A stretch of 64,000 bases of DNA from an uncultured Alphaproteobacteria bacterium (GCA_943787745.1 CALSNJ010000002.1:454904-518903); one strand, 5' to 3'; shown: positions 14,684 to 54,927, counted from the stretch's first letter. Program-made: numbers and translations. The notes: a model not told the origin generated them from the letters alone.

Positions 14684-16801
14684 ATGGCAATCACTTTCAC
14701 CAGACGTGAGACCCGTTCACCTCCGGTTCCGTGGCTCCGTCAGCAGATTCTGGCCGAGCGCGAACGCTGGATATTGTGGTTGCCGGTTGCATTGGCCCTT
14801 GGCATAGGGATTTATTTTGGTCTGCCATACGAGCCTTGGCTCCTTTTCGGTTGGGCATCGCTCGCCAGTTCCCTGATCTTGCTCATCGTGCTCCGCAATC
14901 AATGGGTTGCCCGTATCGGATTGCTGGGGTTATTCGCCATATCGCTTGGTTTCATCGTCGCGCAATGGCGAACCCACGATGTCGCGGAAAACGTTCTGAA
15001 CCGTGCGCTGTCATTTACAACGGTCGAGGGACTAGTGATGTCGGCCGAACCGGCGGTCCATGGTGCGCGCGTCATATTGAAGGTTTCGAGCATCGACCCC
15101 CTCGAGCCCGATGAGATGCCCGGTCGGGTTCGGATAAGGCTGCATGCGTCGGATAGCACGGTGCGACCTGGAGATGTGGTCCGGGTCCGCGCACGCTTGG
15201 CACCGCCGCCCTCGGCCTCATATCCGGGCGGATATGATTTCTCGCGCTCTGCCTGGTTTTCCCGGCTGGGCGCTGTCGGGTTTGCGTTCGGACCCGTCGA
15301 GCATCTGGAACGGGCCGGAAATGACGGGATTTTGGCATGGCTTCAACGCCATATCGAAGATTTGCGCACGCGGATTGCCCATCGGATTTCTGACGGCATC
15401 GGGGGGCCTGCAGGCGGCGTTGCAGCGGCGCTCGCGACGGGGCTGCGCGGGGAAATACCTGAAGAGGTTCGCCAGCACATGCGCGATGCCGGTCTGGCGC
15501 ATTTGTTGGCCATCTCGGGGCTGCATATTGGTTTGGTTGCGGGGTTTGTTTTCACATTCGTGCGGGGTGGACTGGCCATCTTGCCCGGCTTGGCGTTGCG
15601 CTGGCCGCTGAAGAAGATCGCAGCAATCACAGCCCTGGTGGCAGCGGCGGTCTATATGTTGCTGGCTGGCGCGACCGTGCCCACCCAGCGCGCCTTCATC
15701 ATGACCGCAATTGTACTGCTGGCGATGCTGCTCAACCGAACGGGTATATCCCTGCGCCTGATCGCCGTGGCGGCCAGCCTTGTCCTGCTGCTGCGCCCTG
15801 AAGCGTTGTTGAGCGTGAGCTTTCAGATGTCCTTTGCGGCTGCGATTGCTCTGGTGGCGGCTTATGAGGTCTTTGCGGGGCGTCTTCGTGTTGCCAGCGG
15901 CGAAAGCTCAATCGGGCGGAGGATTGTTCTGTATTTCGTGGCCGTCGCGTTCACCACGATCATCGCCAGTCTTGCGACGTCACCCTTCGCGGTTTTCCAT
16001 TTCAATCGTCTGGCCGTGTTGGGATTGGTTGCCAATCTGGTGGCTGTCCCGATTGCCGCGCTTTGGGTGATGCCGCTCGAGGTGCTGGCGCTTTTGCTGA
16101 TGCCTCTGGGTCTTGACGGTTTTGTCCTGCCGCTCTTGGGCTGGGGTGTGGAGGCGATCCTTGCGGTTGCCGCGCATGTGTCGTCCTGGCCGCTGGCTGC
16201 GATCACTGTTCCGGGTCCAAACCCGTTTGGGCTGATCGTGCTGACCCTTGGCGGTCTGTGGCTGACGCTTTGGAAGGGACGCTGGCGTATCTGGGGTATC
16301 GTGCCCATCCTCGCAGGTCTCGCAACATCTGGTCAGGCAACACCGCCGGACATCCTGATCTCTGACAACGCGCGTCTGATCGGGTTCCGTAGTTCAGATA
16401 ATGTCCTGCATCTTTCCAGCACACAATCTCAGTCGTTCGTGCGCGATATCTGGATCCGACGGCTGGGTTCGAACGAGGAGGCTGCGTTTCCGCAACCGGG
16501 TGAGGGAAGCACAGTCCTTCGTTGCGATGAGCAGGGCTGTATCGGGCAGCTCGATGGGCACCGGATCGCCTTTGTCAGCGATCCCTTGGCGTTTGAGGAA
16601 GATTGTTTGTCGGCAGACATCGTGATTGCCGACGTCCCCGTGCCACGGTCCTGCAGTCAACCTGAGATCGTGATCGACTGGTTCGACTTGTGGCGCAGCG
16701 GCGCCCACGCGATTTGGCTGAAAGGAAACGGTCAAAGCCGCGTCTGGCATGCCCGCTCCGAAAACCCCGCGCGTCCTTGGATGCGTCCCGCGACGCGTTA
16801 G
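14684..16801 (+). CDS. comEC: ComEC/Rec2 family competence (DNA internalisation) protein
   Basis: 705 aa polytopic membrane protein with competence-domain region (LAHLLAISGLHIG) and C-terminal metallo-beta-lactamase-like part; conserved neighbour of lexA in alphaproteobacteria. Confidence 0.75.
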   Translation: MAITFTRRETRSPPVPWLRQQILAERERWILWLPVALALGIGIYFGLPYEPWLLFGWASLASSLILLIVLRNQWVARIGLLGLFAISLGFIVAQWRTHDVAENVLNRALSFTTVEGLVMSAEPAVHGARVILKVSSIDPLEPDEMPGRVRIRLHASDSTVRPGDVVRVRARLAPPPSASYPGGYDFSRSAWFSRLGAVGFAFGPVEHLERAGNDGILAWLQRHIEDLRTRIAHRISDGIGGPAGGVAAALATGLRGEIPEEVRQHMRDAGLAHLLAISGLHIGLVAGFVFTFVRGGLAILPGLALRWPLKKIAAITALVAAAVYMLLAGATVPTQRAFIMTAIVLLAMLLNRTGISLRLIAVAASLVLLLRPEALLSVSFQMSFAAAIALVAAYEVFAGRLRVASGESSIGRRIVLYFVAVAFTTIIASLATSPFAVFHFNRLAVLGLVANLVAVPIAALWVMPLEVLALLLMPLGLDGFVLPLLGWGVEAILAVAAHVSSWPLAAITVPGPNPFGLIVLTLGGLWLTLWKGRWRIWGIVPILAGLATSGQATPPDILISDNARLIGFRSSDNVLHLSSTQSQSFVRDIWIRRLGSNEEAAFPQPGEGSTVLRCDEQGCIGQLDGHRIAFVSDPLAFEEDCLSADIVIADVPVPRSCSQPEIVIDWFDLWRSGAHAIWLKGNGQSRVWHARSENPARPWMRPATR

Positions 16802-16833
16802 GGCTGGGATTGAAACCCAATAACCCAATCAGC

Positions 16834-16923
16834 CCGTCATACCCGGACTTGATCCGGGTATCCACGTCCAGAGGTCACGTGACACATTCACGTGGATGGC
16901 CGGATCAAGTCCGGCCATGACGG
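16834..16923. repeat. ~90-bp imperfect palindrome; core 15-bp perfect inverted repeat CCGGACTTGATCCGG / CCGGATCAAGTCCGG plus nested CCACGT/ACGTGG and central GTCACGTGAC
   Basis: Read directly; lies between convergent comEC and lexA. Confidence 0.6.
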
Positions 16924-17049
16924 TGTAGAGGTAATGCGTCATCGCGAGCCCCGGAGGGGCGCGGTGATCCAGTGCCTGACAGGATTGCTTCGTTTGCTAC
17001 GCGCCTCGCAATGACGGCTGGCTGCGGAAGGGTAAAGGGAAACGACCCT

Positions 17050-17787
17050 CTAATATTGACGCAGAAGTCCGACGAGTTCGCCCTGCACCGCAACCTGATC
17101 CGGTCCGAAGATGCGGGTCTCGTAGGCCGGGTTCTCAGCTTCCAGTGCGACGGAATTGTTCCGCTTGCGCAGGCGCTTGAGGGTGACTTCGTGTCCTTCG
17201 ACCAGTGCCACGACAATCGAGCCGTTCTCGGCGTTGTCGGTGCGCTTGATGACGACCGTGTCGCCGTCGAGGATCCCGGCATTGATCATGGAATCGCCTT
17301 CGACTTCAAGGCAGTAGAAGTTCTCTCCCCGGCCGAGCATGGACGGCGGCACCGCGATATGGCGGGTCGGATCACTCAGAGCCTCAATCGGCGTACCAGC
17401 GGCAATCTTGCCAAGGAATGGCACATCGACATCACCGGAGCTTGAGGCCGGTGATGTCATCTCGGATGGCGCGATGATGGGCGAGACATTGGTGTCGCGG
17501 CCACCCTCAATCACGTGGGGGTCGAAGCGGTCAGGTTTTTCAGCTGCGGCGGGCGTGGCGCCAACACCGGTGTCTTCCGGCAGACGTAGAACTTCCAGCG
17601 CACGGGCCCGGTGGGCGAGGCGGCGGATGAACCCGCGTTCCTCGAGGCCCGAGATCAAACGGTGAATACCCGACTTGGATTTGAGGCCGAGCGCCTCCTT
17701 CATTTCATCAAAGGACGGCGCGACGCCGGTCGCGTTCAGGCGTTCATTGATGAAAATCAGTAGCTGGTGCTGTTTCCGCGTCAACAT
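17050..17787 (-). CDS. lexA: LexA repressor
   Basis: N-terminal wHTH ([17 protein letters not shown]), C-terminal S24 peptidase with GDSM (Ser) and KRL (Lys) catalytic dyad. Confidence 0.93.
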
Positions 17788-17881
17788 GCGACGAAAATCC
17801 CCCGTAGGTGTTCAATTCCGGGCCTATTCCGTCCTGCATTAGTACCGCAAGATATAGAACAAACCACAAACATTTATCGAT

Positions 17882-17896
17882 GTTCTAGAGATGTTC
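17882..17896. promoter_or_regulatory. alphaproteobacterial SOS box GTTC-N7-GTTC (GTTCTAGAGATGTTC), ~95 bp upstream of the lexA start
   Basis: Exact match to the direct-repeat LexA operator consensus of Alphaproteobacteria; a degenerate second copy GAACAAACCACAAAC lies nearby at 17858-17872. Confidence 0.7.
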
Positions 17897-18325
17897 TTTT
17901 GAATCGTCAACTGAAGTTCCCGAGTTGAGGTTATCGCTGTCTCTGCCTTGGTGCTTTGCGAGTTCTCGGATTAGCAAGACGCTATAAAGCGGCCCCAACA
18001 CGGGCCAACAGGAAAGCCGCAAGATAACGCCTATTTTGTCGCTGAATGTAATGTCCTGAGCGACGATTTCTGCGCGCGCGATAGGGACTATTTTTGGCGT
18101 TGCAAAGAAGAACGCTCCGGCAATGAAGAACATGGAGATTAGAACGCCATATTGACCGAAGTTCAGAAAACCGATTCCTGCAGCGAGTAAGGCGGTTTGT
18201 ATTATGAAGGGAAGCGCACCTTGTTGCCCGGGTCGCCCCCAAATTCTGAAAAGCGACCGCCAGATAAAGGTGTTCAGAATACTCATCGGCAGGAAAATTA
18301 AGCCGAGAATTACCGATGCGAACAA
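17885..18325 (-). CDS. hypothetical small membrane protein (3-4 predicted TM helices), low-GC
   Basis: 146-aa ORF with strongly hydrophobic segments, local GC ~48% versus ~58% elsewhere; fills the gap between moeA and lexA; its stop codon TAG lies inside the SOS box. Confidence 0.45.
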   Translation of the reverse strand: MFASVILGLIFLPMSILNTFIWRSLFRIWGRPGQQGALPFIIQTALLAAGIGFLNFGQYGVLISMFFIAGAFFFATPKIVPIARAEIVAQDITFSDKIGVILRLSCWPVLGPLYSVLLIRELAKHQGRDSDNLNSGTSVDDSKEHL

Positions 18326-18356
18326 ATGCTTTGTTCCTGAGAAAGTTGGTCCCGCA

Positions 18357-19580
18357 TCAAACCTTCAGATGGCTTCCATCCAACCGCACGATCTCAACCG
18401 CATCCCCGGCCTTGGCCGCAGGCGCGTGGGGTTCGCGGATCATCAGGCAGTCGGCCGCCGCCAGCCGCGAGAACATCGAACTGTCCTGCTTGGGGAAGGG
18501 GGTCGCGATGAGCTTGCCGTCTTCGTGGGACAAGGTTGCGCGGAGGTAATCCTCGCGGCGGTCGTTCTCGCCGAGGTCGGCGCCCAAAGTGGCGGTCTCT
18601 CGCGCCGGTTCGGTTTCATCCGTGCCGAGCATCTGCGCCAGTGCGGGTTTGAGAAACAGGATGCCACAGACCATTGAGGAGACCGGGTTACCCGGGAAGC
18701 CGAGCATCGGGACATCCCCGAGCTGACCGAACATCAGGGGTTTGCCCGGGCGCATGGCGATTTGCCAGAAGTCGAGTTCGAGGCCGAGTTCGGCGAGTGC
18801 CTCCTGCACCAAATCATGATCGCCCACCGAAGCCCCGCCGGTGGTCACCAGCATATCGGTACCGCGCGCTTGTGCGGCGAGGTCGCGGATGGCCGCGATA
18901 TCATCGACCGCAATTCCCAAGGTGATCGGCTCACCGCCGGCGGCCCGGATAAGGCCTTCGAGCGCAAAGGTGTTGGAGCTGACGATACTGGTCGGGCCCA
19001 GGTCTTCGCCGGGGAGCTTGATCTCGTCACCTGTGGCGAGCAGCGCGATGCGTGGTTTGCGCCGGACCTGCAGCCAGGGATGGTTCATGGCGGCGGCCAG
19101 TCCGATGTCGCGGGCGCTCAGGATCGTTCCGGCCTTGAGCAGAACCTCGCCCTCGGCGAAATCCAGCCCGGCCTTGCGGACATAGCGCCCGGCGGCAGAG
19201 CTTTCTTTCACGGTGACGGTATTGCCGTCGCGGTCGGTGTCTTCCTGAATGACAATGGCATCTGCGCCCGCGGGCAGGGCAGCTCCGGTAAAGATGCGCA
19301 CGGTTTGGCCTGCAGAGAGGCTGCCATCGAAGAACCCACCGGCAGGGACTTCACCGACAATAGTGAGATCAACGGGAACGGTTCCGACATCAGCAGCACG
19401 CACTGCGTATCCATCCATGGCGGACACAGCGAGCGGCGGCTGGGTGACGCGGGAGGCAATATCTTCGGCAAGCACACGGCCATGGGCTTCCGGCAGGGCG
19501 ACCTGCTCACTGCCCATCGTCGGAAGATTGGCGAGAATCCGTTGCCGTGCTTCGGCGACGGGCATGAGGGACTTGCTCAT
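18357..19580 (-). CDS. moeA: molybdopterin molybdenumtransferase MoeA
   Basis: 407 aa starting [16 protein letters not shown], MoeA N/C domains with TTGGASVGDHD; start ATGA-overlaps the upstream ORF's stop; upstream in-frame extension rejected. Confidence 0.88.
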   Translation of the reverse strand: MSKSLMPVAEARQRILANLPTMGSEQVALPEAHGRVLAEDIASRVTQPPLAVSAMDGYAVRAADVGTVPVDLTIVGEVPAGGFFDGSLSAGQTVRIFTGAALPAGADAIVIQEDTDRDGNTVTVKESSAAGRYVRKAGLDFAEGEVLLKAGTILSARDIGLAAAMNHPWLQVRRKPRIALLATGDEIKLPGEDLGPTSIVSSNTFALEGLIRAAGGEPITLGIAVDDIAAIRDLAAQARGTDMLVTTGGASVGDHDLVQEALAELGLELDFWQIAMRPGKPLMFGQLGDVPMLGFPGNPVSSMVCGILFLKPALAQMLGTDETEPARETATLGADLGENDRREDYLRATLSHEDGKLIATPFPKQDSSMFSRLAAADCLMIREPHAPAAKAGDAVEIVRLDGSHLKV

Positions 19581-34128: not shown

Positions 34129-34338
34129 GCGGCACCGCGCAACTAACGCGATAGTTATTTACGGTATGACGAATGATTATTTCGTCGCAGATATCGTGAA
34201 TTAACTTAAATCTAGTAAATATCGTATTTTTGCCGGTTTTCTAAGTGTTCCAGGCTATTCAAGGCTTGTTCATATTCCCGATATAACCTACTTGTCGTGA
34301 ATGTAAACGCGCAGGGTCAGGTCGCAGGGGGATCGAAT

Positions 34339-54654: not shown

Positions 54655-54927
54655 ATGGCTGCAGAACGGTCACAGAATGTTCAGGACGTGTTCCTGAACC
54701 ACATTCGAAAACAGAAGACACCGGTTACAGTTTTTCTCGTCAATGGCGTGAAACTGCAGGGTGTTGTGACGTGGTTTGACAATTTTTGTGTCCTGCTACG
54801 TCGCGACGCGCATTCGCAGCTGGTTTACAAGCATGCAATTTCGACGGTTATGCCGTCATTGCCTGTTCAGTTGTTCGAGCCGGAAACTGAATTTGACGAC
54901 GACGTGGATGCCGAGGCGGCTGAGTAA
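54655..54927 (+). CDS. hfq: RNA chaperone Hfq
   Basis: Sm1/Sm2 motifs ...[25 protein letters not shown]...YKHAIST, acidic C-terminal tail. Confidence 0.95.

Follow-up and report, generated by a model that had tools for sequence, protein, structure and literature searches.

SOS division inhibitors encoded beside lexA are known from Gram-positive bacteria, namely YneA in Bacillus and Listeria, ChiZ (Rv2719c) in Mycobacterium and DivS in Corynebacterium. Their genes are divergent from lexA, share an operator with it and are repressed by LexA. Damage-induced small membrane inhibitors or toxins, of 29-71 aa with one or two helices, are represented by SidA and DidA of Caulobacter and by TisB and DinQ of E. 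coli; the promoters of sidA, tisB and dinQ are controlled by LexA, whereas didA is damage-induced by a different route. Here we consider ORF146, an open reading frame (ORF) of 146 codons situated between moeA and lexA in a stretch of 64,000 nucleotides from an uncultured Alphaproteobacteria bacterium (GCA_943787745.1, CALSNJ010000002.1:454904-518903), below referred to as the window. The stop codon of ORF146 lies inside the predicted LexA operator of lexA. We consider it likely that ORF146 is a real orphan gene at the end of an operon, and that its stop coincides only incidentally with a TAG of the lexA promoter.

Like YneA, ChiZ and DivS, the predicted product of ORF146 is a small membrane-associated protein encoded beside lexA. 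However, ORF146 is co-directional with lexA and precedes the operator; it lacks its own box and shows no sequence similarity to these proteins. With SidA, DidA, TisB and DinQ it shares the character of a small hydrophobic inner-membrane protein in the SOS context, but its product is larger (146 aa, with 3-4 helices), and no damage-responsive promoter was found for it. Thus two features of the SOS toxin or inhibitor class, a promoter with its own LexA box and similarity to a class member in sequence or fold, are absent from ORF146. The operator itself is ordinary: it has the same direct repeat over the -10 element and the same second box as the autoregulatory lexA promoters of Caulobacter, Rhodobacter and rhizobia, its sole peculiarity being the overlap with an upstream coding sequence. 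A further comparison is with lineage-restricted orphan genes, or "islets", at synteny breakpoints. ORF146 resembles them in its restriction to a narrow clade, low GC content at third codon positions (GC3), weak codon usage, hydrophobic product and relaxed constraint, and in that sister lineages have unrelated genes in its slot, while most relatives have none.

The initial annotation had placed a LexA operator, GTTCTAGAGATGTTC, upstream of lexA, and had described an ORF of low GC content, wedged between moeA and lexA on the same strand and ending with a TAG that belongs to this box. These observations were reproduced. The operator (17882-17896) is located 94 nt before the lexA ATG; the stop codon is the reverse complement of 17885-17887 and hence falls within it; the GC content of ORF146 is 0.49 against 0.61-0.64 in its neighbours; and moeA, ORF146 and lexA are all transcribed in one direction. 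The coordinates of the features are collected in Table 1.

The assignment of this site, box 1, as the predicted lexA operator is supported by its overlap with the core promoter elements and by its conservation at the orthologous position. The pattern GAAC-N7-GAAC is found within 200 bp upstream of lexA in 85 of the 86 alphaproteobacterial loci and ends in TAGAAC in 65 of them; the full pattern TTGAC-N18-TAGAAC is present in 59 of the 86. In the window, box 2 starts 25 nt further downstream than box 1, and the corresponding pattern GTT[CT]-N7-GTTC, about 25 nt after the box 1 start and in the opposite orientation, was observed at 65/86 loci. The alignment of the upstream regions from the window and from L085, L081, L001, L002, L003 and L082 yields a common module: TTGACG, 17 nt, TAGAAC, a gap of about 10 nt, and GTTTG.GGTTTGTTC. 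It fits the Caulobacter RpoD consensus TTGaCgS / GCtANAWC (PMC8144410), and box 1 agrees with the alphaproteobacterial LexA motif GTTCN7GTTC (PMC12700426). The strict alphaproteobacterial RpoD promoter pattern occurs once in the 64-kb window, at 17910-17882, that is, at lexA. This pattern is needed for detection, as an E. coli-type sigma-70 scan of positions 16800-19000 retrieved no promoter, lexA's own included.

A match to the LexA pattern by itself is weak evidence. Exact GTTC-N7-GTTC occurs six times in 64 kb with 2.3 occurrences expected, and the number of one-mismatch matches across the window, 65 against 58 expected, is at the chance level. One exact match, at 54679-54693, lies inside hfq (54655-54927, followed by hflX) and was judged to be a chance occurrence; the region 54664-54710 of this gene contains one exact and three near matches. 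Another exact match, at 14715-14729, lies some 30 nt into comEC as annotated (start at 14684), and a cluster of near-matches is situated between ORFs at 34236-34271.

The stop codon inside the box looks like a by-product of tight packing against the promoter and not like a regulatory device. The TAG of the box is present regardless of any upstream ORF, since the median ORF ending on it at lexA loci has nine codons and most loci have no gene in the moeA-lexA gap. Of the three frames running into the promoter, one stops at the TGA in TTGACG, another at the TAG in TAGAAC, and the third continues for about 20 more codons; therefore a gene abutting this promoter is likely to end on a promoter-embedded stop. 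The frame of ORF146 would simply have run into the conserved lexA promoter and operator, so that its last nine codons are promoter DNA, and would terminate on the TAG of the -10 hexamer. The tail encoded by this DNA is disordered in the structure model, and the corresponding DNA is non-coding in L003, L082 and L001. Two unrelated gene families, that of ORF146 and that of ORF174/184, end on lexA promoter stops independently, and each also has a member whose stop is upstream of the -35 hexamer (Table 1).

ORF146 is very probably a genuine protein-coding gene. We judge it to be real because of its conservation, as the length of the frame is by itself only suggestive. Among about 7.6 billion proteins searched, its relatives form four clusters only: P0001 (99% identity), P0004 (52%), P0002 (51%) and P0003 (39% in the matched part, 31-36% when the whole alignment is counted). 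Identity across the four lineages is 31-53%. P0001, P0002 and P0003 were retrieved with HMMER in an exhaustive search of 1.84 billion representatives; a word-indexed search and a profile search covered 5.8 billion proteins, and the latter added P0004. The family members have 133-147 aa and one aligned start, which is TTG, ATG, GTG and ATG in the four lineages; in the alignment, the TTG of ORF146 coincides with the ATG or GTG at which the L085, L081 and L082 homologues begin. Homologues at the lexA loci of relatives, which the initial annotation had proposed to look for as a check that the ORF is real, thus exist, and every family copy has the arrangement moeA, ORF, lexA on one strand.

The substitution pattern is of the coding type. 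The sole insertion or deletion between the window and L085 is of one codon, with the synonymous divergence dS about 2, that is, saturated. When the window is compared with L085 or L081, where dS is saturated, the ratio of nonsynonymous to synonymous divergence, dN/dS, amounts to 0.16-0.18 (0.18 with L085); it is 0.43-0.46 for the closer pair, L085 against L081. The 37 nucleotide differences of the closer pair are distributed over the codon positions as 14/7/16. Further, the motif LN..IW.SLF..WGR....GA....IQT.LL, spanning the first two helices, is invariant in the family. We conclude that ORF146 is under relaxed purifying selection.

The gene order upstream of ORF146 suggests how it would be transcribed. 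The genes trpG-trpD-trpC-moaC-orf155-moeA form a translationally coupled operon, in which moeA is the last conserved gene; trpD, trpC, moaC, orf155 and moeA overlap by 4 nt (ATGA) at each junction, as seen from the ORF coordinates, with the gene calls also taken from the near-identical contig L083. ORF146 follows moeA at a distance of 31 nt, and this spacer holds neither a promoter-like site nor a terminator. In the region 17700-19000, scanned both for sigma-70 promoters and with the alphaproteobacterial RpoD pattern, no promoter-like site was found apart from that of lexA. No LexA box was found upstream of ORF146, the sole boxes being situated at or beyond its 3' end, in the lexA promoter. 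Hence we infer that ORF146 is co-transcribed with moeA and is free of SOS control: it would be the final cistron of the trpGDC-moaC-orf155-moeA operon, and would not be expressed from an SOS promoter. The spacer between ORF146 and lexA is 97 nt long, and no intrinsic terminator was found in it on the minus strand; at moeA-lexA loci with a short gap a terminator-like hairpin is present in only 5/38 cases.

The GC content falls to 0.47-0.52 over positions 17700-18400, compared with about 0.60-0.68 on both sides, and that of ORF146 (0.49) is below those of moeA (0.64) and lexA (0.61). Its GC3 is 0.55 against 0.72-0.75 in moaC, moeA and lexA, and the order GC3 > GC1 > GC2 is retained in a muted form. 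The codon usage is compatible with a foreign or young gene.

Several observations weigh against our reading. A frame of at least 146 codons is open in about 1% of shuffles of the 569-bp moeA-lexA gap (p about 0.01 from length). The host codon-usage score of ORF146 is 0.05 bits per codon, as compared with 0.37-0.41 for lexA and moeA, and the antisense frame scores slightly above the sense frame, but holds six stops. The GC3 deficit (0.55 against 0.72-0.74 in the neighbours) points in the same direction, the family is tiny and known from metagenomes only, and the dN/dS of the closer pair, estimated from 37 differences only, indicates a rather relaxed constraint. As for the regulation, both the co-transcription with moeA and the lack of SOS induction rest on sequence patterns, so that an unusual internal promoter would be missed, and LexA bound at the 3' end of ORF146 may have a functional role.

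The first alternative is that ORF146 is spurious, being a piece of AT-rich spacer or promoter-upstream DNA that is open by chance. Low GC content, a near-zero codon-usage score, an antisense frame scoring as well as the sense one, the TTG start, the modest significance of the length and the lack of an annotated family would all be expected in this case. However, the frame has remained open in four lineages, its start and length unchanged, at dS about 2; the differences are coding-like, codon position 2 having the fewest of them, followed by position 1 and then by position 3; an invariant polar motif is embedded in hydrophobic helices; and AlphaFold2 produces a confident helical model from only four sequences. 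Moreover, the ancestral moeA-lexA gap is about 200 bp (the median over 54 loci), and hence the extra 400 bp or so are an insertion and not a typical spacer. We therefore regard a spurious frame as unlikely.

The slot taken up by ORF146, from the moeA stop codon to the lexA promoter, is variable. The moeA-lexA gap has the median length of 200 bp in 54 alphaproteobacterial loci. Between the window and L001, L002 and L085, LexA is 80-83% and MoeA 78-82% identical, but the identity of ORF146 to its homologue in L085 is no more than 52%. The C-terminus of MoeA in L082 is 91-92% identical to those in L001 and L002, yet L082 carries a member of the ORF146 family, and L001 and L002 carry members of the ORF174/184 family. 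As MoeA C-termini this similar adjoin different slot families, the slot gene has been replaced within the clade. Between loci with different slot families no sequence similarity is seen across the slot, and homology resumes at the -35 hexamer. Common origin of the two families was considered and rejected: hhalign aligns only the promoter-encoded tail, with a 9% probability. When the alternative slots and the entire window were translated in six frames and searched with a hidden Markov model of the family, no relic or paralogue came to light, and neither family has left a relic, in any frame, where the other one now resides. Both families are found in the moeA-lexA slot only.

The GC3 of the slot families is 0.55-0.66 in most lineages, with 0.72-0.91 in the neighbouring genes; in L087 and L088 the slot genes have 0.71-0.81. 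The deficit of each family relative to its neighbours amounts to 15-30 points. This persistently low GC3 suggests a foreign or recent origin of ORF146, and the slot genes may have arisen either by horizontal capture or by birth from inserted AT-rich DNA. No meaningful flanking repeats, mobile-element ends or mobility genes were found at the slot. Judging by the loci compared, the moeA-lexA gap is a recurrent insertion site in alphaproteobacteria.

The proteins of the ORF174/184 family are 166-184 aa long and have two transmembrane helices at the N-terminus, whereas their C-terminal part is soluble and conserved. The family forms nine clusters, nearly all metagenomic, with one protein from an NCBI metagenome-assembled genome, and is situated between moeA and lexA in all four loci examined. 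Among the inserts of other lineages are a protein of 257-261 aa that has 6-7 transmembrane helices, an ORF of 156 aa whose N-terminus is hydrophobic, a lipoprotein-like ORF on the minus strand, and DNA of low GC content containing small transmembrane ORFs.

The hydropathy profile of the ORF146 product has three strong transmembrane segments, a weaker fourth one and a positively charged first loop. The AlphaFold2 model, built with four sequences as input, has the mean confidence (predicted local distance difference test, pLDDT) of 79.5 and five helices, at residues 2-28, 33-55, 60-89, 96-104 and 111-133; the acidic C-terminal tail, 132-146, is disordered, with pLDDT below 50. Both analyses give 3-4 membrane helices, in agreement with the hydrophobic character noted initially, and we predict a small protein of the inner membrane, in which three helices are firm and a fourth is weaker, and whose acidic tail is disordered. 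Neither ORF146 nor its homologues match any family in Pfam, NCBIfam, PADLOC or PHROGs, be it a toxin, division-inhibitor, defence or phage family. No sequence match was found in PDB, and the fold matches are to generic helix bundles only. No match was obtained by tblastn in 72,556 plasmids or 50,697 phage records, and a scan of one genome per GTDB species (185,579 species) yielded no relative. We regard ORF146 as representing a new family of orphan membrane proteins that is restricted to a single narrow lineage, and our best guess for its role is that of a dispensable accessory membrane protein.

A more specific role, in conjunction with the molybdenum-cofactor genes, for instance as a membrane partner of MoeA or in molybdate handling, could be suggested by the operon position 31 nt after moeA and by the second small membrane gene, orf155, set between moaC and moeA with 4-nt overlaps. 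However, most alphaproteobacteria have moaC-moeA-lexA without either membrane gene, the content of the slot differs among the sister lineages and elsewhere is a periplasmic protein, a 7-transmembrane protein or lipoprotein-like ORFs, and ORF146 has no motif or family match. This makes such a role very unlikely.

Even less probable, in our estimate, is that ORF146 is an SOS-linked effector, a membrane toxin or a cell-division inhibitor, whose expression is tied to LexA. A possible toxin or inhibitor had been suggested initially, and the suggestion is understandable, as ORF146 encodes a small membrane protein adjoining lexA, all known copies of the family have this location, and the Gram-positive inhibitors YneA, ChiZ and DivS provide a precedent. 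It was not borne out. The LexA boxes are only at or beyond the 3' end, and what lies upstream, 31 nt away, is only moeA; the gene precedes lexA in the same direction, being neither divergent from it nor sharing its operator; the database comparisons show no similarity to any such family, and the fold is generic. The adjacency to lexA is what vertical inheritance in one narrow clade would produce, and the same slot holds an unrelated gene in the sister lineages and nothing in most alphaproteobacteria. At present, ORF146 has no bearing on SOS biology.

It may also be proposed that the overlap itself is functional: LexA on box 1 would block the polymerase arriving from the trp-moa operon and thus insulate lexA from read-through; in the lineage of the window it would, in addition, cut the ORF146 mRNA short of the stop codon, with full-length ORF146 produced only after LexA cleavage. 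There is no terminator between ORF146 and lexA, the stop is inside the operator in three lineages (the window, L081/L085 and L002), and a passage of PMC10310618, citing Sancar et al. 1982, lists LexA among natural transcription roadblocks. However, the overlap is conserved in neither family, as the stops precede the -35 hexamer in L082 and L001 and fall within it in L087 and L088, and a one-in-three chance per frame accounts for the recurrence. Further, since 33 of the 38 short-gap loci are also without a terminator, any roadblock or read-through would be a property of moeA-lexA loci in general and not of ORF146, and a functional overlap seems hardly credible. Least credible are two elaborations, namely, that LexA covering the last three sense codons and the stop would yield a stop-less ORF146 mRNA, whose product is tagged for degradation in undamaged cells, so that, if this were true, a complete mRNA would appear only after LexA cleavage and the gene would be under SOS gating from its 3' end; and that such gating is combined with the spacer being a cradle where orphan membrane genes arise or are captured.

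As to the surroundings of the real gene that we take ORF146 to be, the other small membrane ORF of the operon, orf155, has no Pfam or NCBIfam match and forms ATGA 4-nt overlaps with both moaC and moeA. Its counterparts at this position are ORFs of 44-46% identity in L001 and L002 and a gene of 152 aa in L087; in L085 and L089 orf155 is absent, and the moaC-moeA distance is about 100 bp. Paralogy of ORF146 and orf155, hinted at by a BLASTP match (E = 2e-4, 13/32 identities), was ruled out by the hhalign profile-profile probability of 0.4%. On the other side of lexA, comEC is on the plus strand and convergent with it. Their spacer, 16802-17049, contains a long palindrome with arms at about 16836-16872 and 16890-16922, GGATCAAGTCCGG on both strands, followed by a GC-rich element like a repetitive extragenic palindrome; the palindrome may be a bidirectional terminator. 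Positions 16500-18600, scanned against Rfam, produced nothing but sub-threshold noise.

Table 1. Features of the trp-moa-lexA region of the window and of the corresponding slots in other loci
Feature	Locus	Coordinates	Strand	Remarks
trpD	window	22381-21350	minus	
trpC	window	21353-20523	minus	
moaC	window	20526-20041	minus	
orf155, small membrane ORF	window	20044-19577	minus	between moaC and moeA; no Pfam match
moeA, 407 aa	window	19580-18357	minus	Pfam MoeA_N, MoCF_biosynth, MoeA_C
Probable ribosome-binding site AGGAA of ORF146	window	18334-18338	minus	8 nt 5' of the TTG, in the moeA-ORF146 spacer; read from sequence
ORF146, 146 codons	window	18325-17885	minus	TTG start, TAG stop; from ORF listing
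Last nine codons of ORF146, GTT GAC GAT TCA AAA GAA CAT CTC TAG (VDDSKEHL*)	window	17885-17911	minus	coincide with the lexA promoter, -35 to -10
lexA -35 hexamer TTGACG	window	17905-17910	minus	from the promoter pattern upstream of lexA loci
LexA box 1, GAACATCTCTAGAAC (lexA strand)	window	17882-17896	minus	exact match; overlaps promoter spacer and -10 hexamer
lexA -10 hexamer TAGAAC	window	17882-17887	minus	17-nt spacer from -35; its TAG is the ORF146 stop
LexA box 2, GTTTGTGGTTTGTTC (lexA strand)	window	17857-17871	minus	one mismatch; orientation opposite to box 1
Ribosome-binding site GGGGGA of lexA	window	17798-17803	minus	kept in the alignment of upstream regions
lexA, 245 aa	window	17787-17050	minus	Pfam LexA_DNA_bind, Peptidase_S24; orthologues L001-L080
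ORF146-family stop	window, L081, L085			TAG of the -10 hexamer
ORF146-family stop	L082			about 24 nt before the -35 hexamer, 45 nt before the box
orf174, family of orf184	L001	2001-2525		between moeA and lexA; stop 11 nt before the -35 hexamer
orf184, family unrelated to ORF146	L002	4360-4914		between moeA and lexA; same TAG in the same frame (RVDESEEQQ*)
ORF166, relative of orf184	L087	4001-4501		between moeA and lexA; stop is the TGA inside TTGACG
ORF166, relative of orf184	L088	208-708		between moeA and lexA; stop is the TGA inside TTGACG
Other moeA-lexA insertion	L040	4117-5001		
Other moeA-lexA insertion	L008	4021-5001		
Other moeA-lexA insertion	L017	4007-5001		
Other moeA-lexA insertion	L031	4185-5001		
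Other moeA-lexA insertion	L078	4233-5001		

For annotation and method, ORF146 illustrates that the sequence of an operator can by itself account for a stop codon within it, though such a stop resembles a regulatory device. The locus documents a small hot spot of gene turnover beside a core regulator, where this clade has one or the other of two orphan membrane-protein families. Should the protein prove to be expressed, the fixation of orphan membrane genes at the ends of operons could be studied here in a clean case.

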